The translations under genes and the position numbers were made by a program. 64,000 nucleotides of DNA from an uncultured Verrucomicrobiae bacterium (GTDB lineage: Bacteria > Verrucomicrobiota > Verrucomicrobiia > Limisphaerales > Palsa-1400): assembly GCA_963764165.1 (NCBI GenBank), contig CAVXRD010000001.1, positions 1,056,001 through 1,120,000 on the forward strand. Reading direction: 5' to 3'. The notes beneath the pieces were generated by a model. It was not told the DNA's origin and ran no database searches. It saw nothing but the letters and a program-made list of their open reading frames with translations. This document shows, piece after piece, positions 30,301-47,074 of the stretch. Within the stretch, counting starts at the first letter, position 1. Every line of letters starts with the position of its first letter.

Positions 30301-30718
30301 CGGCAAGGTGGCATATCTACAGGGTATTTCTGGCAGACAAGCTGTTGCCCTAATCAGCAGCTCCACGTTCTGGTGGTACTACTCCTCCCACTTCGACATG
30401 TACAACCTCAAGGACTACATGATATTTGGTTTTCGATTCTCAAGCGCCTCCCAAAGCATCCTCGCCGACCTGGACAAGATTGCTGGGAAACTCGTGAAAT
30501 CCATCGAACATAACGCGGAGGTTCAAACAATGCAGTCGCAAACCCGCGGGGCCGTTGAGCAGAAGATATATAAAGCCGGTAAGTCCAAGCCCATAATCGA
30601 CGAAATCGACACAGTGCTTGCGGAGCACTATGGGTTCACAGAGGAGGAATTGGACTTCATCGTGAATTACGACATCAAATACCGCCTTGGCCGCGACACC
30701 GAAACCGAGGAGGAGTGA
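27368..30718 (+). CDS. Eco57I/type IIG-like amino-DNA methyltransferase with C-terminal target recognition domain
   Basis: PYLNGGLF, GAYYS, DPTGGSGAF (motif I), GNPPY (motif IV). Confidence 0.92.
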   Translation: MPLDFQRARPLLQNGNLSKLFVEELGWEPCRQKLTLRAGETDYAFTAIAEKRGFTAWLCANADGKLPDHTTRLKLDRALTQTSFEHLIVFPTRDGTQQSWMWVRRKTGKPLAARTHEFNRTQPGDSLLQKLQHLYISLEDEERGDVHTLTLSAGAQAAFDIERVTKKFYKDFDAHRIAFLKFIDGIGEVADREWYASVMLNRLMFVYFIQRKGFLDGDHDYLRNRLDRCKREQGKDQFYTFYRYFLLRLFREGFGKRRKDRAPDLEKLIGNIPYLNGGLFDVHELEKPERYGKVIQIPDKAFERIFNYFDQYQWHLDERPLRDDNEINPDVLGYIFEKYINQKQMGAYYSKEDITEYISKNTVLPFLFDAARAKCKVAFENPNGPTVWDLLRENPDRFIYPAVRHGTDKKLPPEIAAGLDTTKPNLIERRKVWNRPAPSDYALPTEIWREVVARRQRYGEVRQKLATGQVLEVNDFITLNLDLRQFAQDVIQNCEGPDLLMALWQPITTITVLDPTGGSGAFIFAALNILEPLYEACLDRMEAFLAEWGENGKKTHPNYHKKFTEVLARVDAHPNRRYFVLKSIIINNLYAVDIMEEAVEICKLRLFLKLAAQVEPDVGRDNLGIEPLPDIDFNIRAGNTLVGYATAQEVRKCLTSEKTSGHDQMRLGVLGEKDAYATFEDKLQIADAAYRSFRQQQTELGGIVTAQDKADLKTKLKTLEDELNCYLAREYGVKVSDKPAYSNWLKSHQPFHWFIQFYSIIARGGFDVTIGNPPYVEYGTKLQSQYQVRNYATLSCGNLHAFCAERSLSLTSPSGCVGLIVPLPSINTDRMAALQSLVKPNTGAKGRSLWVSAFDERPSNLFSGVDQRLVIEIFGAEAQPPTLATTGINRWASKTRDNLFPTIAYSLQDNESIGRTRTILKLKNVAIETSLLRKLYSNDPIEHFRSTLPTKNLVAYRTAGGRYWKVALDTPFDSEAVSGKVAYLQGISGRQAVALISSSTFWWYYSSHFDMYNLKDYMIFGFRFSSASQSILADLDKIAGKLVKSIEHNAEVQTMQSQTRGAVEQKIYKAGKSKPIIDEIDTVLAEHYGFTEEELDFIVNYDIKYRLGRDTETEEE

Positions 30719-31260
30719 TCGGAATCACCATGACCCCAACGGTCCTCCATGCCAGCAGCCCGCTTTACCCGGCGCGTTTGCGCGGGAAGCTGGGCGATGA
30801 TGCTCCACCGCAACTGTCTGCCTTTGGAAATCTGGATTTGCTCGCCCTGCCCAAAACCGCGCTGTTCTGTTCCGCCCGCTGCCCCGGCAAAGCCATCCTC
30901 ACCACCTACGACCAAGCTGCCCGGTGGCGCGACTTTGGCCGCTGCGTCATCAGCGGTTTTCATTCGCCGGTGGAAAAGGAGTGTCTCAGCATCCTTTTGC
31001 GCGGAAGCCAGCCGGTCATTATCTGTCCGGCCCGCAGTCTTGAGAACATGCGCCTTCCTCCCGACTGGAAGCAGCCGCTCTCCGACGGTCGGCTCTTGAT
31101 TCTCTCCTGTTTCGTCGAACGCAACCGCCGTGTTACCGCAAGTCTCGCCGTCCGCCGAAACGAGTTCGTCGCCGCTCTGGCGGATGAAGTCTGGTTTGCT
31201 CACATCGCACCCGGCGGCGAAATGCAATGCCTGGCTCATAAAATTGCTGCGCAAGATTGA
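30715..31260 (+). CDS. Short DprA/Smf-like (SLOG fold) protein
   Basis: YPARL...GNLDLL, VISGFHSPVE, AVRRNEFVAALAD; GTGA overlap with the methyltransferase stop. Confidence 0.82.
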   Translation: MIGITMTPTVLHASSPLYPARLRGKLGDDAPPQLSAFGNLDLLALPKTALFCSARCPGKAILTTYDQAARWRDFGRCVISGFHSPVEKECLSILLRGSQPVIICPARSLENMRLPPDWKQPLSDGRLLILSCFVERNRRVTASLAVRRNEFVAALADEVWFAHIAPGGEMQCLAHKIAAQD

Positions 31261-31270
31261 TTTGACTGTC

Positions 31271-31831
31271 ATGCAGATCATTCGCGCAGTGCCGGTGAGC
31301 GCCGATGATTACGTGGGCACAAGCTTCCATCAGGGTGTCGAGCCGCCATGTAAGTGCCCTCACTGTGACACGACGAATGCCCTCAAGGCGTTGGGGTATT
31401 ATTCCCGAAATGTCACCAGTCCAAAACGTGGCGTTCTGCGCATTTGTGTGCGGAGGTTTCGATGTTGTGAATGCGGTAAAACGGTCAGCATCCTTCCCTC
31501 ATTCGTCCAACCCTATCGGTTGGTTTTAAATCTCACAATAAACGAGTATTTTGGCGGAACACTCAACACCAACGCACTTTCATGGCTACCGCTTTTGAAA
31601 CGGTCCTGGAATCGCTTTTCAAACTGGCATCCACGGATTGACCGCATCATCAGGTCCGTCGTCTCGCGCTCGCCGCCTCATTCGGACGCTTCTGGATGGT
31701 GGAAGGTCATGGCCGCAACTTTGGGCGACCTTGAAAAAATTACAACGGTGCTTGTGGACCGATTTGGCGTCACCCTGTTCGGTCGCTATCGTTGCCACTC
31801 GCCGTTCTCCAACGGCCCGCCACCGAACTGA
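31271..31831 (+). CDS. Zn-ribbon protein, DUF6431-like (normally transposon-associated)
   Basis: CPHC...GYYSRNV...RRFRCCECGKTVSILPSFVQPYR. Confidence 0.65.
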   Translation: MQIIRAVPVSADDYVGTSFHQGVEPPCKCPHCDTTNALKALGYYSRNVTSPKRGVLRICVRRFRCCECGKTVSILPSFVQPYRLVLNLTINEYFGGTLNTNALSWLPLLKRSWNRFSNWHPRIDRIIRSVVSRSPPHSDASGWWKVMAATLGDLEKITTVLVDRFGVTLFGRYRCHSPFSNGPPPN

Positions 31832-32021
31832 CGTGGCTCCACACAACTTATGTATTTCACTGAAAGCCAACGCGTGGAAATCTTTGCGCGCAAATGAAAA
31901 TGGTCTCTGAATTAGCTTTGAGCGATAAACGGCGCACCTCCAAGGACGTCGATCTTAATTTCAAGTCACGGGAAATCCGCAATTGTGCAGTCCGCACTTG
32001 TGGCAACGAGTTTCTTTTCGT

Positions 32022-32444
32022 ATGAGCACCAGCCAAACTGTACCACCACCCATCAGTGCCGCCGCTTACGTGAGAACGGCCACGGAGAACCAAGACTCGG
32101 CAAGCAACCAAATGGACTCCATCAGAAAATATGCCGAGCGCCGGGGAATACAAATCGTCAAAGAGTATTCTGACGCAGGCAAGAGCGGTTTGAGTGCCAA
32201 GGGCCTCGAATCCCTGGCAGAGATGATTCGGGATGTTCAGAATGGACCAATCAATTTCTCAGCCATCCTTCTGTACGATGTCAGTCGGTGGGGCCGATTT
32301 CAAGATGCCGATGAAAGCGCCTATTATGAATTCATCTGCCGCCGAGCCGGGGTGTTGGTTCATTATTGCGCCGAGCAATTTGAAAGTGAGGCCATCCCTG
32401 TTTCCATGATTGTCAAATTACTCAGACTCTTTCCGCGTAAATGA
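32022..32444 (+). CDS. Truncated serine-recombinase paralog lacking the catalytic Ser
   Basis: YVRTATE versus YVRMSTE in the neighbour; catalytic domain only. Confidence 0.8.
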   Translation: MSTSQTVPPPISAAAYVRTATENQDSASNQMDSIRKYAERRGIQIVKEYSDAGKSGLSAKGLESLAEMIRDVQNGPINFSAILLYDVSRWGRFQDADESAYYEFICRRAGVLVHYCAEQFESEAIPVSMIVKLLRLFPRK

Positions 32445-32454
32445 AAACTTCTGC

Positions 32455-33999
32455 ATGAGCACTGGCCCATCAAACCTACCACCAAACAATGCCGCCGCTT
32501 ACGTGAGAATGTCCACGGAGCACCAGCAGTACTCAACCAGCAACCAGATGGACGTCATAACAGAGTACGCCAAACGCCGTGAAAAGCAGATCGTTAAGCA
32601 ATACTCGGACGAGGGCAAGAGCGGACTAAATATCCAAGGCCGCGAATCGCTGGCGCGGATGATTCAGGATGTTCAGGACGGGCAAATCAATTTTTCATCC
32701 ATCCTCGTGTACGATGTCAGCCGGTGGGGGCGATTTCAGGACGCGGACGAAAGCGCCTATTACGAATATATCTGCCGCCGTGCCGGGGTTTCGGTCCATT
32801 ATTGTGCCGAGCAATTTGAAAATGACGGCAGCCCGATGTCCTCGGTCATGAAAACCATGAAGCGGACGATGGCTGGTGAATACAGCCGCGAATTGTCATC
32901 CAAAGTTTTTCAAGGAGCCTGTCGGTTAATCCAAATGGGGTTCAAGCAGGGCGGCACTGCTGGATTCGGCCTTCGGCGCGTACTGGTTGATCAGAGCGGC
33001 CAGCAAAAAGCCGTGCTAAAAATGGGAGAGCATAAAAGCCTTCAAACTGACCGGGTGATCTTGATTCCAGGGCCGGAGGAGGAAATCAAAACTGTTCGGT
33101 GGATGTATTCGGCATTTGTTGAAGGAAAAAGCGAATCGGAAATTGCCAAGGTGCTGAACGCCCAGGGAGTGCTCACCGACTTTGGGCGCGCGTGGAACCG
33201 TTCCACCGTCCATCAGGTGCTCACCAACGAAAAATATATCGGCAACAATGTTTATCATCGCACGTCTTTCAAACTGAAACTCAAACACATTGTGAACCCG
33301 CAGGAAAAATGGATTCGTGGGGACGGCAAGTTTGAGGCCATTGTGGAACCCAGCCTTTTTCACACGGCCCAAGGCATCATCCTGGCTCGGAGCCGGAAAC
33401 TTTCGGATGATGAAATGCTGGAGAAATTGCGCGGCGTGCTCAACAAGCATGGTCGCATCTGCGGCATACTGATCGACGAGGCCGACGACCTTCCTTCCAG
33501 CACCGCGTTTCGTTCTCGTTTTGGAAGTTTGGTCTCAGCGTACCGGCTAATCGGCTACGACCCCGGCATTGATTATGATTTTGTCGAAATCAACCGCCGT
33601 CTCCGCCAAGAGCATCCCGTGTTGGTGGCGCGGGTGGTACGCCAAATTGAGGAACTCGGCGCCGTGGCACGATGGGACAAAGAACACCAGATTGTTCATT
33701 TGAATGAGGAACTCCGGGTTTCCATTGTCCTGTGCCGACACTGCACGACGCCTGGCGGGTCGTCGCGATGGCTGGTTCGACTGGATGACGGGTTAAAACC
33801 GGACATTACCGTCGCGGTGCGGATGGACGCAGCCAATGCCGGAATCCGCGACTATTACCTGCTGCCAGCAATTGATATGACTTGGGAAAACCTGCATGTT
33901 GGGGAGGAGAACGGCATTTACCTGGACGCGTATCGCTTTGACACGCTGGAATATCTCTTCGGGATGGCTCAACGCACAAAACTACAGGAGACCGCATGA
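32455..33999 (+). CDS. Large serine recombinase
   Basis: YVRMSTEHQ, DVSRWGR, LTNEKYIG recombinase domain. Confidence 0.93.
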   Translation: MSTGPSNLPPNNAAAYVRMSTEHQQYSTSNQMDVITEYAKRREKQIVKQYSDEGKSGLNIQGRESLARMIQDVQDGQINFSSILVYDVSRWGRFQDADESAYYEYICRRAGVSVHYCAEQFENDGSPMSSVMKTMKRTMAGEYSRELSSKVFQGACRLIQMGFKQGGTAGFGLRRVLVDQSGQQKAVLKMGEHKSLQTDRVILIPGPEEEIKTVRWMYSAFVEGKSESEIAKVLNAQGVLTDFGRAWNRSTVHQVLTNEKYIGNNVYHRTSFKLKLKHIVNPQEKWIRGDGKFEAIVEPSLFHTAQGIILARSRKLSDDEMLEKLRGVLNKHGRICGILIDEADDLPSSTAFRSRFGSLVSAYRLIGYDPGIDYDFVEINRRLRQEHPVLVARVVRQIEELGAVARWDKEHQIVHLNEELRVSIVLCRHCTTPGGSSRWLVRLDDGLKPDITVAVRMDAANAGIRDYYLLPAIDMTWENLHVGEENGIYLDAYRFDTLEYLFGMAQRTKLQETA

Positions 34000-34877
34000 A
34001 CGACGACGTACAAATGATTCCAATCGACCACATTCGCATTATCAATCCGAGACTTCGGAACAAAGCAAAATTTGAGCTGATTGTGGACAGCATTAAAACA
34101 CTTGGGCTGAAAAAGCCAATTCAGGTGAGCCGTCGTGCGGCGGACGAAGGAAGTGAGCCAGGTTATGATCTGGTCTGCGGGCAGGGAAGAATTGAGGCTT
34201 GCATGGCCTTGGGCTACAAAGAAATTCCGGCGATTGTAGTCGAGGTGAGCAAGGAAGAGCGGTTGCTGCGGAGTTTGGTGGAGAATGCGGCCCGGCGATT
34301 TCCCGTGCCGGCAGACTTGTTGCGCGAAATCGAGCGGTTGAAGGTCGCTGGCTATGGCAATGGCGATATTGGAAAAAAGTTGGGAATTTCTGAATCGTAT
34401 GTCAGCAATTTGATGACGCTGAAGCGGGCCGGAGAAGAGAGGCTTCTCACTGAAGCGCTCAATGGCAAAATTCCAATTTGGATTGCAATGGACATCGCGA
34501 AAACCGATGACGTGGAAATGCAGCGGGAAATGCTCAAGGGACTCGAAAGCAAAAAACTGAACCATATTTCCATTCGGGTGGTGAAGCGCATTATCGAGCA
34601 ACGACGTTTTCTCGGAAAAACACGGGTTCGAGATGATCGAGACAGCCACGCCAGCGCCGATAGCATGGTGAGCATTTACAGGCGCGAGTGTCAGCGCCAG
34701 AAGCTCCAGGTGCGGAAAGCGAAATTATGCGAGGAGAAGCTTCTGTTTTTGGTGAAGGCGTTCGACAAGCTGGTTGGGGACGAAAACTTTGTCAATTTGC
34801 TGAGGGCCGAAGCTTTGTTTACGATGCCAAAATACCTATGGACGAAAACGTCCCACAAACATGAGGAGGCCGCATGA
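33996..34877 (+). CDS. ParB/RepB-like protein 1
   Basis: SIKTLGLKKPI, LVCGQGRIEA, SLVENAARR; ATGA overlap. Confidence 0.87.
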   Translation: MNDDVQMIPIDHIRIINPRLRNKAKFELIVDSIKTLGLKKPIQVSRRAADEGSEPGYDLVCGQGRIEACMALGYKEIPAIVVEVSKEERLLRSLVENAARRFPVPADLLREIERLKVAGYGNGDIGKKLGISESYVSNLMTLKRAGEERLLTEALNGKIPIWIAMDIAKTDDVEMQREMLKGLESKKLNHISIRVVKRIIEQRRFLGKTRVRDDRDSHASADSMVSIYRRECQRQKLQVRKAKLCEEKLLFLVKAFDKLVGDENFVNLLRAEALFTMPKYLWTKTSHKHEEAA

Positions 34878-35749
34878 GTGCTGCCAAAGTGGCGTTCGAG
34901 ATGAAAACGATCAAAGTGTCGCTTGATCTGATTTTACCTCTACGCCGAATGAAAAATCCGCACAAAACGATCAGCCGGTACAAAAGGATTCTAACCTCTA
35001 TCAAAGAGGTGGGGCTGATCGAACCGCTGGCAATCCACCCGCAGCGGGATAAATCTGGCACCTACATGCTCCTCGACGGGCATCTTCGTCATAGCGCCTT
35101 AAAGGAGTTGGGTATGACAGAGGCGGACTGCATTATCGCAACCGATGACGAGAGTTTTACCTATAACGCCCGGGTCAGCCGGTTGCAGCCCATCCAAGAG
35201 CACAAAATGATTGTCAAAGCCGTGCAAAACGGGGTGAAGCCGGAGAGAATTGCTGCGGCCCTCGACATGCCGTTGAGCGCGGTGCGTGCATCCATGAATC
35301 TATTGGACGGCATTCATGCCGAAGCGTCCGACATGCTGAAGGACAAGCCGATCAGCCCCAAAGCACTTCGGTTTCTAAAAAAGGTGACAGGCGTTCGGCA
35401 AATTGAAATGGCCGAGTTAATGGTGAATGCGAACATATTCGCATCTGGATATGCCGAGGCGCTTTACTTGGGCACGTCGCGAGACCAACTGGTCGATTCT
35501 GAAACCCCGAAAGTCAAAGAGGGATTGTCACGGGAAGAAATCGCGCGCATGGAGCAGGAAATGGAGTCATTGGAAAAGGATTTCAAGGCAATCGACGAAG
35601 CATTTGGGGAGAACGTGCTGAATCTGACGGTGGTGAAGGGTTACACGAAAAAATTGTTGGAGAACGCGAAAGTGATCCGTTTTTTGAAGGCGAACTATCC
35701 TGAATTTCTGAGCGAATTTGAATGGATCGCGGCGGCGGAAACTTTGTGA
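34874..35749 (+). CDS. ParB/RepB-like protein 2
   Basis: SIKEVGLIEPL, LLDGHLR, DDESFTYN; ATGA overlap. Confidence 0.87.
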   Translation: MSAAKVAFEMKTIKVSLDLILPLRRMKNPHKTISRYKRILTSIKEVGLIEPLAIHPQRDKSGTYMLLDGHLRHSALKELGMTEADCIIATDDESFTYNARVSRLQPIQEHKMIVKAVQNGVKPERIAAALDMPLSAVRASMNLLDGIHAEASDMLKDKPISPKALRFLKKVTGVRQIEMAELMVNANIFASGYAEALYLGTSRDQLVDSETPKVKEGLSREEIARMEQEMESLEKDFKAIDEAFGENVLNLTVVKGYTKKLLENAKVIRFLKANYPEFLSEFEWIAAAETL

Positions 35750-36095
35750 GGTCAACCCAGGTCATCACTTGCGCGTCAAGGATGACTTTTTTGGGGCAAA
35801 GCCCTGGAACAAGCCCCGCCGGAACCAGCGCGTGCCTCGCGCCCTGATCGCGCCCTGAACGAATACTCGGGCACAATTCTCGTGCTCGCAGTCCATGGGT
35901 CGTTCGGATAGACTTATAAGTATCACAACGGGATACGATGCGGCTCGCCCCTGACGTGATAGAGCGTCAACTTGCCCACAAGGGGCGTGATAAGGTTCGC
36001 TCCGCTTACAACCCACGCTCAATATTTGCCTGAACGCCGCAGAATGATGCAGTGGTGGGCCTTACCTTGGTTGCGTGGCCACAAAGAAATGACAG

Positions 36096-37034
36096 TCATT
36101 TAGTAAATTTGAGGATTTGTGCAATTCGAGGCCAAAACCTTGGCACTCTGGGGACGGAGGCGTCCTTCACATCCCCTTTGGCCGCGATGGTCCCGCTTTC
36201 CACTGATCTGCTGTTGAAGTGCCTGATGTCAAAAAGCGCGTCGCCCGTTTCCTCAGGCGGATGATGCTGACAAACCTTGTTGCGAAATAAAGCCATCCGG
36301 TCGTTCGGGGTCAGCGTACCGCGATTCCCATCATAATCCAAATACACAAATTCACGATCATCCGTAAACCAAGGTGTCAGTAATTGCGTTATTAGTCCGA
36401 CGGCGGTTGATGCCAGAACCCCATTTGACCAAACTACTTGCGGTCGACTGCCCGCAGCGCCATATTTCTTTGCCTCTTGCGCCAACCGTTCATCCGTAAT
36501 CAAGCCTACACACCGCAAACATGGCTTGCCAGGCATTGAAAGAATGACCTGGCCGCCGATTAAATATTGCTCGCCGCCTAATTCGTGGACGTCCATCCCA
36601 ATGTCGATGTACGGTATTAGGTGCCTTCTGGCAAAGCGTTCCAGTTGTTCGCGTTCGATGAATGAATCCACTGCACCCGCAATAACATCGCACCTCGTTA
36701 GTTCGGAGACGGCGCTGTGCCAAGAGCCTCGAATGCTAATTATGCGTGGCTGTTCAACCAAGCCCGCGAGTTGCCGTTGCGCGATCGTAACTTTGGCTGT
36801 CGCGGGTCCGATGTCGGCCAAGGTTCCGCCTATGAGCCGATTGGTATTTGTGTCGGTGATATGGTCGGGGTCAATGTTGACATAACCGCCGATTCCAAGA
36901 TGGCCGCATTGCTGGACAATATGAGAGCCGCCGCCACCGAGGCCAATAAGGCCAACGGTGGAAGAATACAGCGTGGCCTCACTATCGGTTCCGAGAAAGC
37001 TTTGCCGCTCAAATCGACTCACCTGGTTTGCCAT
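36096..37034 (-). CDS. ThiF/E1-like adenylating enzyme (BilD position)
   Basis: RFERQ, GLGGGGS, DPDHITDTNTNR, PCLRC. Confidence 0.92.
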   Translation of the reverse strand: MANQVSRFERQSFLGTDSEATLYSSTVGLIGLGGGGSHIVQQCGHLGIGGYVNIDPDHITDTNTNRLIGGTLADIGPATAKVTIAQRQLAGLVEQPRIISIRGSWHSAVSELTRCDVIAGAVDSFIEREQLERFARRHLIPYIDIGMDVHELGGEQYLIGGQVILSMPGKPCLRCVGLITDERLAQEAKKYGAAGSRPQVVWSNGVLASTAVGLITQLLTPWFTDDREFVYLDYDGNRGTLTPNDRMALFRNKVCQHHPPEETGDALFDIRHFNSRSVESGTIAAKGDVKDASVPRVPRFWPRIAQILKFTK

Positions 37035-37519
37035 CCTTTCAACGGCGTGCCCACTTCAACAAATTCGTTGATGATCCTGCCCGGTTGATCTGCGCCCAAC
37101 CAAATGTGACCTCGCGCATGGGTGTGGCTTAAAACCAGCGCACCGTGGGGAAAGCGCGGTGCAACCTGAAAAAAGTTTGGCACAAATTTGGCCTGCTCAC
37201 GAAGGTCAACTTTGCTGAATCCAGGATGTCCCTGCCCGCAGTGCGTATGAACATGGAATATGGAAACACCAGACATTGCCCATTGTAGAGCCTTGCGAAT
37301 TGCCTCCGGCCCCATCATCGCCCCTACGGAATTGTCTCGAAGGTAATCGTCGTCAGCGACAGGACGATAAGCGCGAGCATATACAGACAAGTCACCAACC
37401 GTAGCCGACACCCCGCAGGCAATGAAACCGACCCGCTCATAGGCGAACGGGTGCTGACGCGCCAAGTCCTGTCGAACGGACTTCAAGAGTTGGCGGGTGA
37501 TTTTAAACCGGATTTTCAT
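37019..37519 (-). CDS. JAB/MPN+ peptidase (BilC position)
   Basis: ERVGF...HVHTH...FSKVD JAMM motif; ATGA overlap with the upstream gene places the start at 37519. Confidence 0.87.
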   Translation of the reverse strand: MKIRFKITRQLLKSVRQDLARQHPFAYERVGFIACGVSATVGDLSVYARAYRPVADDDYLRDNSVGAMMGPEAIRKALQWAMSGVSIFHVHTHCGQGHPGFSKVDLREQAKFVPNFFQVAPRFPHGALVLSHTHARGHIWLGADQPGRIINEFVEVGTPLKGWQTR

Positions 37520-37851
37520 GATACCGCTCGGAGATGCGCACCCAACATACTGGTCCAAGGCTGCTCGGCCACGACGTTGTTCCACGATGGCGCCCACCAA
37601 CTACGGCCCAGCACCGTATGGTCTTTCCAGCCAGTGCTCTGCCCGATACCCTCCAGCTTTTGTTCGAAAAAAAGTCGGGTTGTGTATCCGCTATGGATTG
37701 AGGGGTGCAATAGAAGCGCCATCGTTATTGTCTTGCCTCCTGCCCGAAATTTGAAATTCGGCAGCAGCACGATAGGCACACTGTTTTCAGCATGAAGAGC
37801 CGCATCGGCATGCAATGCCTGCATAGCGGCAAATTCGACCTTGGCATCCAT
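37516..37851 (-). CDS. Small prokaryotic E2-like protein without any Cys (BilB position)
   Basis: LLLHP...GYTTRLFF...W...GRSWWAPSW pattern; position between Ubl and JAB. Confidence 0.65.
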   Translation of the reverse strand: MDAKVEFAAMQALHADAALHAENSVPIVLLPNFKFRAGGKTITMALLLHPSIHSGYTTRLFFEQKLEGIGQSTGWKDHTVLGRSWWAPSWNNVVAEQPWTSMLGAHLRAVS

Positions 37852-38528
37852 TAGGAAGAGCCTCCGCCGTTCACCTGGCTATAGAAGTGCATACCACATT
37901 CGATGCGAATGTTTTCATGGGGTTTTAATGTAACAAGCTCGCCATCGGGGGTTTTCAAGTTCAGCAAATACCCCGGCTCAATAGGAAATTTGGACATGAG
38001 TTGTTCGGTGGTATAGACCCCGGGTGCAAGCTCATAGGCAACGTCCTTAAAAAACACTTTTACGAAACGCTTTTCGGTTCTCAAATGCTCCGTCCCCGGC
38101 TCTGCAAAATTGACCTCGTCATCCGGACCCAAAACCTGGTCTGGTCGATCCTTGCGTTCCAGAACCAACAATTCATCCGGCTTCACATGCGCAATCATCC
38201 GCAGCATCGGCTCTTTTATTTTGGAGGAGCCCCAATCAAATCCGCGTTCGTCCACCGTGAACCGGTAGACCCGGTCAGACCTGAATGCCCAAAACACCTC
38301 AACGCCGGGATTGCGAAGATCCACCGTCTGATCCAGGCCGACTGCGACCGTTCCGTGCGCCAGAACCTGAATAAGAACGCAATCATCTGCCGGGCGAAAA
38401 TCCGCTTTGTCCAGCATTTGACGGGCTGTTGGCACGGGGTCCTTGAATTCAAATTTTCGTTCATTTATGGTAGCCGGGAAATGCCCGGCTTTATCGGCAT
38501 GGGGGTCATTTTCAGTTGCGGTGTGCAT
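37851..38528 (-). CDS. Multi-ubiquitin-domain protein, three beta-grasp repeats, C-terminus GGGSS (BilA position)
   Basis: Three ~70 aa repeats (VDLRNPGVEVF, VNFAEPGTEHL, IRIECGMHFYS) and a terminal Gly motif. Confidence 0.9.
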   Translation of the reverse strand: MHTATENDPHADKAGHFPATINERKFEFKDPVPTARQMLDKADFRPADDCVLIQVLAHGTVAVGLDQTVDLRNPGVEVFWAFRSDRVYRFTVDERGFDWGSSKIKEPMLRMIAHVKPDELLVLERKDRPDQVLGPDDEVNFAEPGTEHLRTEKRFVKVFFKDVAYELAPGVYTTEQLMSKFPIEPGYLLNLKTPDGELVTLKPHENIRIECGMHFYSQVNGGGSS

Positions 38529-38577
38529 TATGTGCTCCTTTGTTCTTGCTGTTAATGTTTGCTCTCATTACGACCCA

Positions 38578-38683
38578 ACCCTAACCTACAGGGTTTGCAA
38601 TGTCAAGGCACACACGCACTTTCGTGCGTGTGTGCCGCACATTGCGTGTGAGGTTGACATGGGCGGTGTCACCCTGTATCAAT
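38578..38683. promoter_or_regulatory. Divergent sigma70-type promoters flanking a 13-bp perfect inverted repeat
   Basis: Minus strand TTGACA-N17-TAGGGT; plus strand TTGACA-N17-TATCAA; GGCACACACGCAC-tttc-GTGCGTGTGTGCC at 38607-38636; ACCCTGTA present in both promoters. Confidence 0.75.
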
Positions 38684-38688
38684 AGACA

Positions 38689-39000
38689 GTGATTCCAGAC
38701 CCGATTTACAAATTCATTGGCGCGAAAATTCAGGCCCGGCGCAAAAAACTCAATCTCAAGCAGGAGAATCTGGCGCGAATGCTAGGTATATCAAGAGGAT
38801 CACTCGCAAACATAGAAACAGGCCGACAGAGCATTCTTGTCCACCAGCTTTTCAAGTTTGCGGTACAGCTTCAATTATCGCCATTCGATTTGTTGCCAGA
38901 ACAGTCACAGGATGACGTGGGGGGTGAGGCCACAGAACTGCCACTGCCCGCCGACTTAAAGGGGCAGCAAAAAAAGCAGGTTACCAAAATGTTTTCTTAA
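38689..39000 (+). CDS. XRE-family HTH regulator (CapH-like)
   Basis: IQARRKKLNLKQENLARMLGISRGSLANIETGRQ. Confidence 0.9.
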   Translation: MIPDPIYKFIGAKIQARRKKLNLKQENLARMLGISRGSLANIETGRQSILVHQLFKFAVQLQLSPFDLLPEQSQDDVGGEATELPLPADLKGQQKKQVTKMFS

Positions 39001-39040
39001 AATATCAAAAACCCAAAAAAAGTAAAACAAGGAGGAAATA

Positions 39041-39574
39041 ATGTCAAAAATCGCAAAGATTGATCCTTATGCTCGCGCACGACAAGTGCTCGACAAACAA
39101 TCGATAAAATCGTTTCCAGTTCCGGTCGAAAGAATTGCCAAGGCCTTGGGCGCGCAGATTCGGTTTGCCCCTCTGGATGATGAACTCTCAGGAATGGTTT
39201 ATGTGAAAGACGGTGTGCCAATCATCGGCGTCAACTCGCTCCATCATCCAAACCGACAAAGATTCACCATCGCTCATGAAATCGGTCATATGGAACTTCA
39301 TTTGGAAATGATCACCAGTTCCGTCCATGTAGACAAAAAGTTTATCGGCCTTATGCGGGATTCAAATTCTTCAACTGGCAACGAGGAGATTGAAATTCAG
39401 GCCAACCAATTCGCAGCAGAACTATTAATGCCCCAAAAACTCATTGAGGAAGAGTTGGAAGGAAAGCAATTTGACATTGATGACGACGGCCCAATTGAAG
39501 AACTTGCCAAAAAATTCCGCGTCAGCAAGCAGGCTTTACTTTATAGAATAGGAAATCGCAGTCAAAAGGACTAG
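39041..39574 (+). CDS. ImmA/IrrE-family Zn metallopeptidase (CapP-like)
   Basis: RQRFTIAHEIGH and EIQANQFAAELLMP. Confidence 0.93.
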   Translation: MSKIAKIDPYARARQVLDKQSIKSFPVPVERIAKALGAQIRFAPLDDELSGMVYVKDGVPIIGVNSLHHPNRQRFTIAHEIGHMELHLEMITSSVHVDKKFIGLMRDSNSSTGNEEIEIQANQFAAELLMPQKLIEEELEGKQFDIDDDGPIEELAKKFRVSKQALLYRIGNRSQKD

Positions 39575-39586
39575 GCCCAGATCACC

Positions 39587-40993
39587 ATGAGTCTCATCTT
39601 TTATGATACTGAGACAACGGGAACTGAAACCTTTTTTGATCAAATTTTACAGTTTGCCGCGGTACGAACCGACGCCGATTTCAATGAACTCGATCGCATC
39701 GACATTCGATGTCGGCTTTTGCCTCATGTAGTGCCTGCGCCGGGCGCAATTACGGTAAACAAACTTAAAGTTTCGCAGCTAATCGACCCTTCTTTCCCAT
39801 CACATTACGAAATGGTTCGTGCCGTTCGCGCGAAATTACTCTCGTGGTCACCTGCGTTGTTTGTGGGCTGGAATTCCATAAAATTCGATGAAGCGCTGGT
39901 TCGCCAAGCGCTCTATAAAACATTGCACAATCCCTATTTGACAAATGCAGGTGGAAACACTCGCTCCGATGTGATGCGTATCGTTCAGGCCTGTAGCATT
40001 TATGCACCTGATGCCCTTGCATTTCCGAAGGACAGTAACGGGCAACTGCAGTTTAAGCTGGAAACGGTTGCGGCTGCGAACGGTTTTTCGATTAAAAATG
40101 CTCACGATGCGATGGGGGATGTGGAGGCAACCATCTATCTGTCCAAACTGCTGGCAGAAAGGGCCGCCCGGATTTGGTCGTGCTTTATGCGGTTCAGTAC
40201 AAAAGCAGCGGTGGTTGATTACATAAGCAACGAGCGAATATTTTGTTTAAGCGACGTTTACTTTGGGAGACCGTATTCGTACTTGGTTACAACAATTGGT
40301 CAGAACCAGGCTAACACTGCCGAATGGTATGTTTATAATTTAGAGGTTAATCCCGAATCCTTGATGTCGCTTTCGAAACAGCAGTTAATGGTTCGCCTCG
40401 ACCAGTCAAAAAAGCCAATCCGTAAACTGAAATCAAATGCGGCTCCAATGCTGTTTTCATCCGACGAAGCCCCGGAAACCTGCGCTGGAATTGAACACGG
40501 TCCGGACGAACTGGAACGTCGCTGCGTATTTCTGGAAAGCAACACTAAACTGCGTGATCGGATCGTGGCCGCCTTTGAAGCAATTCAAAAAACATATGCG
40601 CCATCAAACCACGTTGAAAAACAAATATATGACGGATTCCCGCAAGAGGCTGACGAAAAACTGATGACGGAATTTCACGACGTTCCGTGGGCGCAACGAA
40701 CTGAAATCGTGGAAAGATTCTTGGATTCGCGCCTGAGGAAGATTGGAAGGCATCTGATCCACACTGAACGACCTGACCTTTTGGAAAAACACATTCGTCG
40801 GGATCACGATTTGGCGACCGCAAAAAGATTACTTGGACACGGCGAAGAAATTGCTTGGGTGACCTTGCCGGAAGCTCTTAACGAAATCGAACAATTGGTA
40901 AAGAGTGCCAAAGGAGCGGCGTCAATATTCTTTCAGGAACATGAGCAATATCTAAGGAAGCGGCATGAACAAGCCCTCATTCATGTAAAATAG
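39587..40993 (+). CDS. Exonuclease I (SbcB)-like 3'-5' ssDNA exonuclease
   Basis: FYDTETTG, GWNSIKFDE, FKLE...ANG, AHDAMGDV, EKQIYDGF. Confidence 0.88.
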   Translation: MSLIFYDTETTGTETFFDQILQFAAVRTDADFNELDRIDIRCRLLPHVVPAPGAITVNKLKVSQLIDPSFPSHYEMVRAVRAKLLSWSPALFVGWNSIKFDEALVRQALYKTLHNPYLTNAGGNTRSDVMRIVQACSIYAPDALAFPKDSNGQLQFKLETVAAANGFSIKNAHDAMGDVEATIYLSKLLAERAARIWSCFMRFSTKAAVVDYISNERIFCLSDVYFGRPYSYLVTTIGQNQANTAEWYVYNLEVNPESLMSLSKQQLMVRLDQSKKPIRKLKSNAAPMLFSSDEAPETCAGIEHGPDELERRCVFLESNTKLRDRIVAAFEAIQKTYAPSNHVEKQIYDGFPQEADEKLMTEFHDVPWAQRTEIVERFLDSRLRKIGRHLIHTERPDLLEKHIRRDHDLATAKRLLGHGEEIAWVTLPEALNEIEQLVKSAKGAASIFFQEHEQYLRKRHEQALIHVK

Positions 40994-41077
40994 GCGGATT
41001 TTTCATCCAATTCTTCCTACAAAAATCACTTTTCAAGATCAAGGTCAGTCGGGTGCTTGTCCGGTGCCTTGGCCCAT

Positions 41078-41449
41078 TCAGTCAAATAATGAAGCCTGCG
41101 GCGACCGTTTCCTGTCCAGAAGGCTTTCTGGCGTCACATCCACTTCATAAAGCCCAAGCTGCCCTTTCACGGGAAACGGTTCAATGGCTCTTATATTTTG
41201 AAGCACCCATGCGAAAGCGTTGGGGTAAATAGAACACTGGGCCGCAACCTCGTCCGCCTTTGTCATCACCCGGCAATCAACAAGGTTTGCAACTGCAACA
41301 GCACATCCGGCAGGCTCAATGTTTGGGACCTTGGAAGATACCAAGAGAACCTGGCCCCGGTATAGCGTCGCCCATTCCCGCGTTTCAATAGTTTTTTTGC
41401 CTGATGCAATCAGGTTGGCCCATGGCTGTTTTATGGAAATTGCCTTCAT
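41078..41449 (-). CDS. ASCH domain protein
   Basis: SIKQPWANLIASGKKTIETR and PVKGQLGLY. Confidence 0.92.
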   Translation of the reverse strand: MKAISIKQPWANLIASGKKTIETREWATLYRGQVLLVSSKVPNIEPAGCAVAVANLVDCRVMTKADEVAAQCSIYPNAFAWVLQNIRAIEPFPVKGQLGLYEVDVTPESLLDRKRSPQASLFD

Positions 41450-41459
41450 CGGTTACGAC

Positions 41460-42836
41460 TTAAATTCCCAGCAGTCGCTTTGACTCGGCGGAAGCCATGA
41501 CGCCAAGATTTTTCAAAAAATCATTCGACCAGCGAAGAAGCATGTCTCCCCACGGCGCGTGCGTCGTGATTTTTTTGTCTCCGAATCTTTCGGCAGTGGC
41601 GACCGGAAAAAATCCGTGCGAGAGCACAATGATTTCCCGACTCAACGGAGAACAGGTTGTAACCTTGCGGGCGAATGAAACTAGAGCGCGAAAATCCATT
41701 TGTTTCGTTGTGTCAACGGAACCGAGATTTTCAAACAGTTTGAACCCATAATCATTAGCTGAATCAAGCCCCGCCTCTTTCATGGCGATTCGCCGATAGA
41801 TGCACGGGACGCAATAACCACAGTGGCGGACGCCTAAATTTTTATACCTGCTGGGTCTTGCGCAGGAAACGGACCGGCGCATTGCTTGTGCCAGTTTTGG
41901 ATCAAGACTGCGGAGCATGTCTGTTTTGCTTTCAAACAGAAACGGGTTTTTGATGTTTCCTTTGAAGATTCCCGTTGAATGCAAAAAGTCGGCAAGCTCC
42001 ATCAGATATTTTGGATGTGCGGTGCGGGTGCTGAGTGTTCCAAGGCGGTTTTTCCCAAGCGGAGGATTGAGTGCAATCAGTCCGTTCTCTGGTATGTAAA
42101 CCGTGTCGATCTTTGCATCATTGGCCAGTGCTATTGCGAGGCTAAGAAATAAAAGTGAGCGCGGGCGGTGCGTTTCCTCGCATTTGTCAGGAAGGTTATA
42201 GCGGTGATCGGCTGTAAATGCCCGCGCTGCGCGACATTGAATTAGCTTCAACTGCTTTGGGAACATTGTTCTCAGCACCTCCGCAAGTTCAGTCTGCGCC
42301 GAAGCCGCCGTGCCATCGGCCTGATGACCGCACAACAAAAGTTTTTTCCCCTGCGACAGCAACTTGTGTGCGCCGAGGAATGAATCTATTCCCCCGGAGA
42401 ACAGACAGACAGCGTCAAAACCAACGGGCAGATGCAAACGATGGGTTCCGAATCCGTCCAATGCAGGCCGGTCGCACCAGGTAAAACGATATTTGTCACC
42501 GGCCAGTGTTTCGAGCATCTGGCTGAGGGGGGCTTGATTTGCCGTCCACAGCTTGGGATTCTTTACCGGAAACAGAATGTCGAATTCACGGGTCCAGTCA
42601 TCGCCTCTTTCTTCGATCTCATCGACAATGTAAACCAGCGTGGCAAGGTCCAGAAAGTCCCGTGTCAGCGGTTCGTGGGAAATTTCCAATGGATGCGAAT
42701 CCATCTCCAAACGTAGCGTAACATTTGCGCCGCCGGGCACAGAATTGACGATGGTGTAGCCAGAATCCGCTGCCAGGCTTTCGAGGTAAATCGTGGGCAG
42801 CTTGTCTCCTTTGCCTACATAACGCACGGCCTTCAT
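41460..42836 (-). CDS. qatC: QueC-like protein QatC
   Basis: CLFSGGIDS, PENGLIALNPPL, STRTAHP, HCGYCVPCIYRR. Confidence 0.92.
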   Translation of the reverse strand: MKAVRYVGKGDKLPTIYLESLAADSGYTIVNSVPGGANVTLRLEMDSHPLEISHEPLTRDFLDLATLVYIVDEIEERGDDWTREFDILFPVKNPKLWTANQAPLSQMLETLAGDKYRFTWCDRPALDGFGTHRLHLPVGFDAVCLFSGGIDSFLGAHKLLSQGKKLLLCGHQADGTAASAQTELAEVLRTMFPKQLKLIQCRAARAFTADHRYNLPDKCEETHRPRSLLFLSLAIALANDAKIDTVYIPENGLIALNPPLGKNRLGTLSTRTAHPKYLMELADFLHSTGIFKGNIKNPFLFESKTDMLRSLDPKLAQAMRRSVSCARPSRYKNLGVRHCGYCVPCIYRRIAMKEAGLDSANDYGFKLFENLGSVDTTKQMDFRALVSFARKVTTCSPLSREIIVLSHGFFPVATAERFGDKKITTHAPWGDMLLRWSNDFLKNLGVMASAESKRLLGI

Positions 42837-42849
42837 GTCAAATCCCTTG

Positions 42850-43659
42850 TCACAATGCTTTCAGCCTTCCTTCAAGTTCCGACACCAATTCGTTTCCAAG
42901 TTTTATACCGCCTTGTCCGAACCAGTCGGTTTTGTCAAAACGCCCCGATGCTTTGCTTTCCTTGATTAAGGATTCCACATGTGACCGGCAGGATTGTCCG
43001 ACGGCAATTCCCAATCCCTCCGCACCAGCACCTTCGGCCTTAAATTCCGCATGGCTTTGAACGGCATTCCAGACACGGTCAAAGACATAATTTGTCAGGA
43101 AGGACTGCACGAGTCCTTCGACGCCGTTTTGATCGAAAAATGCTTGCAGCGCTGTTTCCAAATCGTTGTATTGACCACCATCTTCAAGGGCAGCCACTTC
43201 AATTAAGGTGTCTTTCAAGGCGTCACACAAAATATCGCGCTGAAGGGGATCATCGTTTTCGGCAAGATGCTCTGCAATTTTGGCGATAACTTCAGCGGCT
43301 GGTTTGCCTTTTAGGTCGCCTAGGCCAAGCGAACCAAGCGCTTCGTCCAATCCGCCATGTTGAAATGCACCACCGAATCCACCCAAGCGAGAGGTTACCC
43401 CTCCAATTGATGCACTTCGTCCGCGACCACCGCCGCCACCGCCGCCACCGCCGCCGCCAGCACCACCACCACCACCGCCACCGCCACCGGATCGTGCAGC
43501 TTGCGAAGGCAATCCCAAACCACCCAGGGCGCGGACGGTTCCGCCGACTATTCCTGCGGGGGTAGCCTTGGCACCACCATTGAGGTTAAGCGTGATTTCC
43601 TTTTTGACCGGCGTCCATTGCCCGCCGCTTGGCGTTGGTTTTCCTTTTGATGTTCCCAT
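42850..43659 (-). CDS. qatB: QatB
   Basis: MGTS N-terminus, poly-Gly linker, GLDEALGSLGL; lies between qatA and qatC. Confidence 0.85.
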   Translation of the reverse strand: MGTSKGKPTPSGGQWTPVKKEITLNLNGGAKATPAGIVGGTVRALGGLGLPSQAARSGGGGGGGGGAGGGGGGGGGGGRGRSASIGGVTSRLGGFGGAFQHGGLDEALGSLGLGDLKGKPAAEVIAKIAEHLAENDDPLQRDILCDALKDTLIEVAALEDGGQYNDLETALQAFFDQNGVEGLVQSFLTNYVFDRVWNAVQSHAEFKAEGAGAEGLGIAVGQSCRSHVESLIKESKASGRFDKTDWFGQGGIKLGNELVSELEGRLKAL

Positions 43660-45449
43660 TATGGGTTGCCTCCCCGGCGCGAGTTTTTACTGGGCCTGCT
43701 GAGCGCATCCGCAATTGTTGAAGCCTTTTTGAACTTGGCCGTGACCGTATCTGGAACATCCGCACCCGCGTCTTTTGCCTTTTGCAAAAGAGTTAGCGCC
43801 GCCAACGCTACAGCGGTTTTACTGCCGTCCAGTTCGCCAACAGGTTTTACCATTGTTTTGAATAGCTCCTTGTGGGTTGCCCCAATTTGAGACAAGCCGC
43901 CTAGAATATTAGCGATGGCAGTTGCGTCCGCTGCCGATGGCAGGTCTACCAAAAGCTGGCGCACAACGGCTGATGCCAAAGCGGGTTCCTGCGCGGCGGC
44001 CCGCTTTGAAGCTGAACGGGACATCAGTGAATCAGTTCCTTCGATGGCGCGGACAAGCTGTTTGGTTTTTTCATCCACTGACACGATGCCAACCGGCTGT
44101 CCATGGCTGAGCGAAGTTTGGGCAAGGAAAAGATAAGGCGTGAGGTTGGTGTTTCCGTCCAGTCGCGGTTCCGCGAGCATGAAACCGCAAAGCCCCGGTT
44201 CTCCCAGGAATGAGTTCAAAGTGGGTGATTGCTCCGTCACCGTTTTGCCATCGCCGGTCTGAACAATCTGAGCGAGCAATTCGCTGGTCCCTGTCGCCGG
44301 GTCGATGGTTTCAGCAAGAATGCTGAAAAATTCGGCCCAAACATATTCCAGCACGGCAAATTTCACCAAGAGTTCAGGCTTAACATTGGGAAGCATGTTG
44401 GCTTCGACCAGTTGTTGGCGCAGCGAAAGAATATTCAGGAAGCGTTTAATCTGGCGCGGGTTGCCCCGCAGTCCCCGCGCAAGCGTGTCAACAAACGGGA
44501 GGACGCCTGTGAGTTCCTTATCAATCGCATCCTGTGTGGTCGAAAGCACCATTCTATTTTCAGAAACCCATTTTGAGAATACCCCGGCAAGGTCGCCTAC
44601 ATGGGAATAAAACCCGGAGCGGGCATCGCTTAATTTTGACCACGCACTTTCGTTCAGGTGCCTGCCGATTATCAGCATTCCGACGTAACAGCCAATATCG
44701 CGCACGTCCTGCGCGGGAATGCTGAACGGTATCTGGACGATCTTTTCCAGATAATCCTTTTGCCGCCTCAAATCATTGCCGACTTTGTAAACCTCGCCGA
44801 CGGCGTGCTGAATCTTTTCCGCGTCCGCGCCGATCACGAAGGTGCAGGCGGGCGTATTCAGGAAAAGTTTAATGGTCTCGAATGTTTCGATGACCTTGGC
44901 GCTCGAACACCGGTCAAGGTCGTCGATGAAAACGACGATCCGGTCAATTCCGACAAGCTTGAGCAATTGTTTGAAATCGCCTTCAAACGATTCCATGGTA
45001 TCGGTCACTTTGTCCGATTCCTCTTTGAAGCAGTTGGCGAATTCCTCGACATTGGGCGTCATGGTGATGGCGCTTTTCATGAGAAATTTGCCAAGCTTCA
45101 AGACGCTCGCGCCTTTTTTCAGTTTGTCGATAAGCTGCTTGGCCTCGCCAGCAAGCGTCACGTCCCTTTGAAGATTGGAGAGGATGGCGTGAATGAGGGC
45201 GCTTTGCGCTTCCTCCCGGCCTTCATACATCCAGGCATTGAACCACAGTGTGCTGCGCTTTTTCTCAGCCTTGGTAGCCTCGATGGTCATCATCATCATC
45301 TGCATCAGGCTCGTTTTCCCGCTGCCCCACGGACCAAATATGCCAAGCGTCAGCGGTGCCAGGTCTTTATGGGTGCAAATGTTGGCAAGCACCGACACAT
45401 AAGTGCTGTAGCCGAGGCAGTCTTGGCGTGTTTCACGGTCTGACCACAT
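43659..45449 (-). CDS. qatA: KAP-family P-loop NTPase QatA
   Basis: MWSDRET, GPWGSGKTS, FIDDLDRC, YLEKIVQIPF, GNPRQIKRFLN. Confidence 0.92.
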   Translation of the reverse strand: MWSDRETRQDCLGYSTYVSVLANICTHKDLAPLTLGIFGPWGSGKTSLMQMMMMTIEATKAEKKRSTLWFNAWMYEGREEAQSALIHAILSNLQRDVTLAGEAKQLIDKLKKGASVLKLGKFLMKSAITMTPNVEEFANCFKEESDKVTDTMESFEGDFKQLLKLVGIDRIVVFIDDLDRCSSAKVIETFETIKLFLNTPACTFVIGADAEKIQHAVGEVYKVGNDLRRQKDYLEKIVQIPFSIPAQDVRDIGCYVGMLIIGRHLNESAWSKLSDARSGFYSHVGDLAGVFSKWVSENRMVLSTTQDAIDKELTGVLPFVDTLARGLRGNPRQIKRFLNILSLRQQLVEANMLPNVKPELLVKFAVLEYVWAEFFSILAETIDPATGTSELLAQIVQTGDGKTVTEQSPTLNSFLGEPGLCGFMLAEPRLDGNTNLTPYLFLAQTSLSHGQPVGIVSVDEKTKQLVRAIEGTDSLMSRSASKRAAAQEPALASAVVRQLLVDLPSAADATAIANILGGLSQIGATHKELFKTMVKPVGELDGSKTAVALAALTLLQKAKDAGADVPDTVTAKFKKASTIADALSRPSKNSRRGGNP

Positions 45450-46277
45450 AATATTTTCCTGAAGATTCGTTCCCCCGTCTCTTGGGCGCGAATGATCGAG
45501 AACTATCGTAGGCTGGGGAGGAAACAGGGCAACCTAAAAGTGCAGGCGGGGACATCCTTGCAGCGCTCTGAAAAAAACAAATAAACCGTTCGGTCTTGAA
45601 TCGGTTGGCATCGGTATCGCCGTGAGTTCGGCGGGAGAGGAAACAAGTTGGAAATGTTGGCTGGTTTTGGCGCGAAACGCCTCGTCATTGTACGGCCCGT
45701 CTGCGCCTGTCAAGGTAGTGCCCCCGTCTCCCGCTGCCTCCACCTTGACAGTGCTCGCCGGGCCTGGGGACTTTGCTCTTAGGATTTCGCGCCGGGAATA
45801 CTGCCAAGAACAGGGAAACCGCATTGGGACGGATGACCCGAACGATGGATTGACCACTCCGACCCGCTCACGAAAGTTGTAATGCCTTCGTTACAACCTG
45901 ATTCCTCATTCTCTGTAATTCTGTGCTCATGGTTAAGGCTATATATCGGGTTGCCGAAGCAGATTGTCCGCATTTGCGGACAAAGTTTTCCCGGCTGTGC
46001 GGTACGGTGCCAACGATGAGAGCAATTGTTCATCGTGCCATGCCTGCCGGAAACATGCGGCAGGATGTTCAGAAGCCTGAACAACTTGATGCCACATCTT
46101 CTGGCAACATAACGACCGTGAGAATGGCTGTCAGGCCGCGAAGTCCGCCAGCAGCGACAACGTATTTTGTGTCCCTGATACACCTGACGGTCCTGTGGTT
46201 GTGCCAAAATAAGACAATGGAAACGATTGTTCATGGTCTGCACGAGCACAAAGCGGCCTGACAAGAAGGTGGTTTGA

Positions 46278-46625
46278 GTGAAAAAGTTGAATTTGACGGG
46301 CAGACTGGTCAACAAGCTCCGCAACGAGCGCGGCTGGACCCAGGATGAATTGGCCGACCGCCTGCAAAAGGCCGGTTGGTTGATCTCGCGCAGCGGCGTT
46401 TCAAAAATCGAGAGCGGTTTTGTTTATGTCCACGATTTTCAAATCCAGGTCTTCGCTTACGTGTTTCGCGTTCCGGCCATCATTTTCGTCCCCACCCTTG
46501 ACATGAGCAAACCGATTGACGAGACCCTTGGCCGCCTCATTTACAACGAGAAGCATGGCCTTGCGTCGAAAACGAACAAGATGTTTCACGCGGCCTTGTT
46601 CGCCGCCAGCGGCAAAGCCGCTTGA
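46278..46625 (+). CDS. XRE-family HTH regulator
   Basis: LRNERGWTQDELADRLQ...SRSGVSKIESG. Confidence 0.85.
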   Translation: MKKLNLTGRLVNKLRNERGWTQDELADRLQKAGWLISRSGVSKIESGFVYVHDFQIQVFAYVFRVPAIIFVPTLDMSKPIDETLGRLIYNEKHGLASKTNKMFHAALFAASGKAA

Positions 46626-46635
46626 AACAGAATTT

Positions 46636-46842: not shown

Positions 46843-47074
46843 GGACGCCCGCCTACGACGGCGTGGATAAGGGCATACTTGACAGAAAACTAGCCGGGGC
46901 CGGGACATGAACCGACTGGCCAATGATTTCCAGCGCCGATTCACCCACGGGGTTTCCAACTAGGAGACGCTGCCCACATGCAAAAGCATGGTCGCGGAAT
47001 TTGGGTTTGACTGCGGCACAAGACCTCTTCGATTTCGTTTTGACAGTCGTATTGCGCTTGCGCCATAGAGAAAA

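Follow-up and report, generated by a model that had tools for sequence, protein, structure and literature searches.

We asked which chemistry a bacterial ubiquitin-like conjugation operon might use when its E2-like protein holds no cysteine and its E1 carries none in the crossover loop. The operon lies in what we call the window, the whole stretch of 64,000 nucleotides (64 kb) analysed from contig CAVXRD010000001.1 of an uncultured Verrucomicrobiae bacterium, and all coordinates refer to it. A sequence-only reading of the same DNA had proposed a minimal subtype with the architecture of Bil (ISG15-like) systems, relying either on Ser/Tyr oxyester chemistry or on a non-catalytic E2 adaptor. We consider it probable that the operon and its relatives represent a third branch of the Bub-type conjugation pathways, unfused and without BubE, in which a Ser-ended ubiquitin-like protein (Ubl) would travel through an oxyester relay of Tyr191 in the E1 and Ser89 in the E2.

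The ORF (open reading frame) list of the window contains four overlapping frames, all on the minus strand:

37851..38528, minus strand: Ubl3, three beta-grasp domains, 225 amino acids, ending in G-G-S-S (Pfam Multi_ubiq, E 8e-24; Ubl3 matches in the PDB).
37516..37851, minus strand: UBC-fold, BubB-like E2, 111 amino acids, containing GRSWWAPSW (AlphaFold2 fold match, hhalign, conservation).
37019..37519, minus strand: JAB/JAMM-type peptidase, 166 amino acids (motif E28, H91, H93, S102, D105 intact; weak profile matches).
36096..37034, minus strand: ThiF-type E1, 312 amino acids (Pfam ThiF; BubCD is the best PDB match by sequence and fold).

The Ubl and E2 genes meet in a TAATG overlap, the E2 and JAB genes in an ATGA overlap, and the ATG of the E1 gene falls within the final codons of the JAB gene. 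These ORFs and junctions bear out the four coupled genes described earlier (tri-Ubl ending in GGGSS, E2-like, JAB, E1). For JAB, the ORF list gives a TTG start at 37600; homologues favour the ATG at 37519, from which the length of 166 amino acids follows. To follow the operon beyond this genome we used a family set of 109 loci with a family E1, the window included, which was not dereplicated and was drawn from GTDB genomes (20), plasmids, metagenomes (the best 80 of 552 confirmed) and one viral contig. Since 81 of the 83 family loci with sufficient upstream DNA carry all four genes, the arrangement is not due to chance. The two incomplete loci, L003 and L028, adjoin transposase genes; in L028 the place of the Ubl and E2 genes is taken by a Tn3 element.

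The E1 consists of a single ThiF domain according to Pfam. A profile search of the PDB placed BubCD of Citrobacter first (88 bits; next 62), and BubCD also led the fold search (E 3.6e-17). The available text of Ye et al. (bioRxiv 10.1101/2024.11.21.623953) distinguishes Bub types I and II, reports that mutation of the Tyr or Ser abolishes conjugation and states that ‘All Bub operons possess bubE’. Bub pathways of both types form oxyester intermediates and attach the Ubl to lysine. In the E1 studied here, Tyr191 (codon 36464-36462) is kept in 120 of 120 close homologues, is invariant across 36 diverse E1s and is found in 106 of 106 family loci with a readable loop, the loop pattern being unmatched in the remaining 3 of 109. 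Type I Bub E1s taken from genomes and plasmids have their crossover Tyr at the aligned position. The AlphaFold2 model has Tyr191 closing helix 181-193, directly followed by a low-confidence loop (194-200), which fits a mobile catalytic loop. As the sequence-only reading had noted for this 312-residue ThiF protein, the loop after CLRC is free of cysteine: the five cysteines (43, 115, 172, 175 and 255) all lie elsewhere. C172, C175, C255 and H257 are invariant in the E1 alignment and look like a CxxC...CxH zinc site. The crossover loops of 106 of 106 family loci hold no Cys apart from the residue adjoining CxxC (position 176), which is Cys in 50 of the 106 and Val176 in this operon. We predict that Tyr191 is the nucleophile of the E1.

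The E1 continues into a C-terminal tail (window 36096-36220) that was modelled as a low-confidence linker followed by an amphipathic, Trp/Arg-rich helix. Tails of at least 20 residues are present in 108 of 114 close homologues, the Trp motif in 75, and distant members stop after the core. The tail is reminiscent of the hydrophobic extension of BubE and, speculatively, may serve as a membrane tether.

The E2 required structural comparison. Sequence searches of the PDB, Pfam and NCBIfam gave no match, and Foldseek alone gave none at E 0.001 or better, BubB having the highest TM-score (0.61). When the AlphaFold2 model (predicted local distance difference test score 96) was compared with 48,161 chains, BubB was the best match (Z 9.0 and 9.1, root-mean-square deviation (rmsd) 3.6, 107-108 residues aligned) and the only chain with Z of at least 8; Atg3, the TSG101 UEV domain and canonical E2s came behind it. 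A UBC fold of the small ORF, a point on which the earlier proposal depended, is thus supported. A comparison of the E2 profile with five BubB-type E2s using hhalign gave a probability of 92% with the serines aligned. We link the E2 to BubB through the folds and this profile-profile comparison, because sequence searches alone gave no such link.

Of 151 representatives, 147 have Ser89 of the E2 (codon 37587-37585); the other four are truncated or frameshifted. This serine is the sole invariant column of a 147-row alignment with a mean identity of 31%, from which ten fragmentary or extended rows were omitted, and it aligns with the Bub serine both in the register alignment and in hhalign. Tyr56, Arg59, Trp75, Trp85 and His106 are conserved as well. 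Arg59 (146 of 151) stands at the position of BubB Asp299 and His106 (138 of 151) lies on the last helix; the two are candidate residues for the activation of Ser89. The complete lack of Cys that had been reported for the 111-residue protein holds for this E2 but is not a trait of the family, as only 11 of 151 relatives are Cys-free. A Cys is found at position 49 in 90 of 151 and at position 89 in none; this E2 has His49, and position 49 is well removed along the sequence from the catalytic one. We predict Ser89 to be the nucleophile of the E2. With BubCD and BubB as the best matches, Tyr191 in all scorable loci and an invariant Ser89 aligned with the Bub serine, Tyr/Ser oxyester chemistry, one of the two options raised at the outset, is likely. 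The chemistry of the operon would then be Bub-like, and as such it has already been published (Ye et al.).

Which end of the Ubl would enter such a relay? Its PDB matches are Ubl3 proteins, namely E. coli type II BubA (best), M. brachiatum BilA and Citrobacter BubA. According to the available text of PMC11601603, the matched Ubl3 proteins of Bub and Bil bind Ca2+ and form filaments. Alignment with the Citrobacter Ubl3 shows D30, D85, D130 and E147 kept and E62 and E68 not, so that filament formation may be regarded as partly supported here; many family members have shorter Ubls. We compared 79 distinct Ubl ends out of 85 loci, with positions counted as F+n, and obtained the end motif G-x-[S/A]-[S/A]. 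At F+10, 74 of the 79 ends have Ser and the other 5 have Ala, and in 75 the stop follows at once; the four extended Ubls add residues beyond F+10 and vary only there. Gly is absent from F+9 and F+10 in all 79 ends. In type I BubA the reactive Gly occupies the position aligned with F+10, and the type II BubA ends that we examined have Ser in 7 of 7, in line with the Ser-ended E. coli BubA in the accessible part of Table S2 of Ye et al. (bioRxiv 10.1101/2024.11.21.623953). The restriction of F+10 to Ser or Ala, its register with the type I Gly and the Ser-ended type II BubA lead us to regard the terminal Ser as the likely reactive end. The ‘Ubl C-terminal Gly’ assumed by the sequence-only reading is probably wrong.

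An alternative keeps the same Tyr/Ser relay and has the JAB first remove three residues (x-S-S) to expose the Gly at F+7, giving a Gly-ended tag as in Bil and type I Bub. This Gly is present in 77 of 79 ends (that at F+8 in only 50 of 79), an intact JAB is always present, and BubC processes BubAB at a Gly in the portion of Ye et al. (bioRxiv 10.1101/2024.11.21.623953) available to us. However, F+7 lies three residues before the position that matches the Gly of type I BubA, and a leaving peptide would not be expected to have a fixed length, to be restricted to Ser and Ala or to leave the four extended Ubls varying only after F+10. Type II BubA moreover is Ser-ended in systems without a JAB. We therefore regard trimming to F+7 as unlikely, though it is the strongest competitor of an unprocessed Ser end.

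Less probable still is that the E2-fold protein is a non-catalytic adaptor, as the sequence-only reading had offered as its second option, and that the E1 transfers the Ubl to its target directly from Tyr191 or from the adenylate. Two positions after Ser89, all 87 loci compared have N, K, Q, R, S or D and never His, the Asp partner is missing too, and UEV domains (TSG101) were the next-best fold matches at Z ~7. Against this, Ser89 is the single invariant residue of the protein and sits at the position of the tested catalytic serines of both Bub types, which speaks for catalysis by Ser89.

One might also doubt that proteins are tagged at all and think of a pathway like those of ThiF/MoeB or MccB that transfers sulfur or modifies small molecules, as ThiF (7.6e-14), MoeB and MccB are among the next fold matches of the E1. 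Yet the NCBIfam ThiF/MoeB scores of the E1 are far under the cut-off (48 vs 275) and it has no crossover-loop Cys. Rhodanese, desulfurase or biosynthetic neighbours are missing, an E2 fold is encoded in the operon and a separate MoeB-rhodanese exists elsewhere in the genome, all of which makes this pathway very improbable. Thioester chemistry via another Cys (E1 C115 or position 176; E2 position 49) is the least credible reading of all: all 120 close E1s keep C115 and 107 of them have Cys176, and E2 position 49 is frequently Cys as given above, but this operon has Val and His at the latter two positions, fewer than half of the scorable family loci have Cys176, C115, which is outside the crossover loop, varies in the wider alignment, and Ser89 and Tyr191 are kept with or without these cysteines.

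We then considered how conjugates might be removed. E28, H91, H93 and D105 of the JAB are invariant in 25 of 25 sequences. Profile comparison with the BubC domain gave weak matches (E 0.13; probability 59%), no Pfam or NCBIfam model matched, and the single sequence retrieved no JAB from the PDB. As most Ubls need no processing, the JAB is likely to act mainly as a deconjugase. JAB and E1 are separate in 105 of 109 family loci and share a reading frame in 4 of 109. DUF6527, the domain of BubE, was found neither in the genome of the window (97% complete) nor in any of the 109 family loci, 80 of which have at least 1 kb downstream; the control model recovered 13 of 19 held-out DUF6527 loci. Of 26 carrier genomes or records, 24 had none and 2 gave a match, in neither case beside the operon: one match is ~27 kb away and the other belongs to a separate JAB-E1-fusion operon. 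Supply of BubE in trans was rejected for this genome, given the absence of DUF6527 at that completeness.

Type I Bub (formerly 6E.1; BubAB, BubCD and BubE of Citrobacter sp. RHBSTW-00271; PDB 9EA4, 9EAE, 9EAV) shares with the family the domain order Ubl-E2-JAB-E1, a ThiF-type E1 with a crossover-loop Tyr, a short UBC-fold E2 with an invariant Ser, Ubl3, the association with CapH/CapP and the location on a tRNA-integrated mobile element. It differs in possessing BubE and in the fusion of JAB to E1 (BubCD), which are unfused here; the type I rows in part 1 of 7 of Table S1 (bioRxiv 10.1101/2024.11.21.623953) all list the deubiquitinase fused to E1. BubB has Asp299 and His335, whereas the family E2 has Arg and no +2 His, and the type I Ubl is Gly-ended in contrast to the Ser/Ala-ended family Ubl. 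The family E1 also differs by its shorter crossover loop, the CxxC...CxH zinc site and its own clade (support 92/98 in the first tree and 98/97 in the second). Type II Bub (6E.2; E. coli ZDHYS365 BubA, BubBD and BubE) likewise replaces Cys by Tyr/Ser, has a Ser-ended standalone Ubl and supplies the best PDB match of this Ubl, but it has an E2-E1 fusion, BubE, typically no JAB and E1s in a distant clade. Bil types I and II (Collimonas sp. OK412; Ensifer aridi TW10) share the four separate genes Ubl-E2-JAB-E1, the occurrence of Ubl3 forms and the CapH/CapP association. Their E1s, however, have ~515-520 amino acids, IAD-AAD-CYS domains, a catalytic Cys and a helical insertion, unlike the ThiF-only protein of 312 residues, and the catalytic Cys of their E2 and their Gly-ended Ubl do not hold here (unless trimming to F+7 occurs). 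Bil systems protect against phages by tagging a virion protein. The accessible text of Chambers et al. and Hör et al. (bioRxiv 10.1101/2023.09.04.556158 and 10.1101/2023.09.26.559546) describes Bil E1 and E2 as Cys-based. The operon would therefore work like Bub, yet it falls outside the Bub types as defined, lacking BubE and the fusion pattern of each type, and it departs from Bil in everything except gene order. What stood of the original classification is an uncatalogued minimal subtype; its Bil likeness is confined to gene order, the E1 being a single ThiF domain closest to BubCD.

Other layouts were seen alongside. Locus L030:2441-4888 (CP013100.1, a Candidatus Tenderia plasmid) is another BubE-less layout, with a Ubl3-E2 fusion that has a Gly junction and an S-W-D E2 motif, a standalone JAB and a standalone E1 with crossover Tyr. 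L043:29-2106 (G965) combines a Ser-ended Ubl with an unfused E2 (motif S-F-N) and a JAB fused to the E1, and its E1 is sister to the family E1s (96/83). L029 and L031 (Bradyrhizobium and Rhizobium plasmids) resemble type I Bub operons, but have a phosphotransferase gene that separates the E1 gene from that of BubE.

A search of the literature, with the Bub paper in its preprint version, gave no description of a BubE-less, unfused four-gene form. The portion of Gong et al. (PMC11601603) available to us names no systems beyond Bil I/II and Bub I/II. Iyer et al. 2006 (PMC1779556), as far as its accessible text goes, lists operon types 6a-6e, none of which is a Cys-less four-gene form without metal-binding gene. 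PADLOC-DB 2.0.0 (2023) gave no match for Ubl, E2 and JAB and weak CBASS E1-E2 matches for the E1. Mesorhizobium sp. WSM3224 appears in the Bub Table S1 as a type II E2-E1 fusion and not with the standalone 301-residue family E1 (P0074), and term searches of that table did not find five other carrier names. That a source beyond those compared has catalogued the family is a modest but real chance.

Several points weigh against assigning the operon to a Bub-type oxyester pathway. Identity between E2 and BubB in the structural alignment is just 6%, at the rmsd of 3.6. The activation of Ser89 is unexplained, the E2 being without both type I Bub helpers (+2 His and Asp). The JAB fold assignment draws on the motif and on weak profile matches. 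The nearest kin of the family E1s is not fixed by the tree: approximately unbiased tests reject no grouping (p = 0.094 for family plus Bil, 0.28 for family plus type I Bub and 0.16 for family plus type II Bub), and the first E1 tree grouped Bil with MoeB/TcdA on long branches. Finally, Bub operons give no reported phage protection in the available text of bioRxiv 10.1101/2024.11.21.623953 and PMC13373217.

The family is broad. Close homologues of the E1 are numerous, and the matches of the E2 profile fall into 330 clusters at 50% identity. Of the best 150, 148 do not exceed 125 amino acids, which means that the family E2 stands alone as a gene. Carriers belong to Pseudomonadota, Acidobacteriota, Nitrospirota, Gemmatimonadota and Binatota and include, among cultured ones, Methylocystis rosea, Rhizobium leguminosarum and Bradyrhizobium plasmids. 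Per genome the system is rare: 4 of 301 genomes in the phylum of the window carry it, its own genome included; the class of L001 gave one real match, the centre genome, among 401 genomes; and the phylum of L004 gave three strong matches among 301. For comparison, 17 of 401 genomes in the phylum of L007 had DUF6527 and 4 of 401 had PF14459, a domain of the Bil E1. A phage-borne cassette was ruled out, as there was no copy of the system among GenBank phages and one in IMG/VR.

The operon is carried on an integrated mobile island, and divergent genes of possible regulatory function lie next to it:

14350..47276, no strand assigned: integrated mobile island of 33 kb carrying the operon (tRNA-Pro(TGG) and partial tRNA copy).
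38689..39000, plus strand: XRE/HTH (helix-turn-helix) repressor, CapH-like, divergent from the operon (Pfam HTH_3; PADLOC capH, E 2e-5).
39041..39574, plus strand: ImmA/IrrE metallopeptidase, CapP-like (Pfam Peptidase_M78; PADLOC capP, E 3.5e-37).
39587..40993, plus strand: exonuclease I-like (DEDDh) gene, accessory, behind the CapH/CapP-like pair (Pfam and NCBIfam).

The island is bounded on one side by tRNA-Pro(TGG) (14350-14426) and on the other by a 45-bp partial repeat of this tRNA, 96% identical, at 47232-47276. A CapP-like gene is present in 52 of the 69 family loci having at least 3 kb upstream, and a homologue of the exonuclease I-like gene in 13 of 108. In some family loci (L023, L024 and L040; translations only) a sigma-factor-like/HTH gene lies upstream instead of the CapH-like repressor. 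PADLOC and domain scans showed that the island also holds an integrase, a TrwC relaxase, a PLD-SNF2 helicase, a type IIG restriction-modification enzyme and QatABC. The QatA, QatB and QatC homologues (41460-45449, minus strand) are followed by an ASCH-domain gene (41078-41449, minus strand) with no adjacent QatD/TatD, possibly a Qat variant. On the plus strand, 21385-30718 holds a DUF4062-HATPase gene, the PLD-SNF2 helicase, the type IIG restriction-methyltransferase and then a DprA-like gene, and 32410-35749, directly downstream of and convergent with the operon, holds a serine recombinase and then two ParB/RepB-like genes, possibly a nested mobile unit. Judged by this genomic context, the role of the operon is most likely in anti-phage or stress response.

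Gene content, conservation, fold matches, alignment registers and the lack of BubE are observations; from them we infer the chemistry, the complexes, the mature end of the Ubl, the regulation and the role, as follows. Going by the published CapH/CapP, the CapH/CapP-like pair likely de-represses the operon upon DNA damage. The E1, probably a homodimer like BubCD, would adenylate the terminal Ser of the Ubl, for which conservation and register suggest that trimming is unneeded in most cases. Tyr191 would receive the Ubl as an aryl ester and pass it to Ser89 of the E2, by homology to BubCD Y370 and BubB S333, with Arg59 and His106 as candidate activators. As there is no E3, the E2 likely picks the target, on whose lysines the Ubl would end. 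The JAB, being the only peptidase, likely assumes the deconjugating role of BubE and may trim the few extended Ubls. We hold this whole relay, from the induction by the CapH/CapP-like pair to the reversal by the JAB, to be quite likely. We are clearly more hesitant about a stricter version, which strikes us as possible but doubtful, of a third minimal, cysteine-free class with an unprocessed Ser-ended Ubl, Tyr191, a new Ser-Arg-His E2 site and a JAB that cuts Ser-lysine isopeptide bonds.

The novelty lies in a broad third branch, so far unannotated, that lacks BubE, pairs a Ser-ended tag with a JAB and has an E2 active-site layout of its own; the chemistry itself is published for Bub. Because Table S1 of Ye et al. 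(bioRxiv 10.1101/2024.11.21.623953), in its accessible part, catalogues Bub operons by the DUF6527 gene, BubE-less relatives were invisible to the published survey. If our interpretation is true, oxyester ubiquitination would have no need for BubE, would exist with a third E2 active-site layout and could combine a JAB with a tag that ends in Ser. The cultured carriers supply the four proteins in small, separate form, which suits the question of what Bub-type systems target and whether they defend against phages. Should the third minimal class prove true, no BubE would erase the conjugates, and the family would offer the cleanest system to show an anti-phage function of oxyester ubiquitination.

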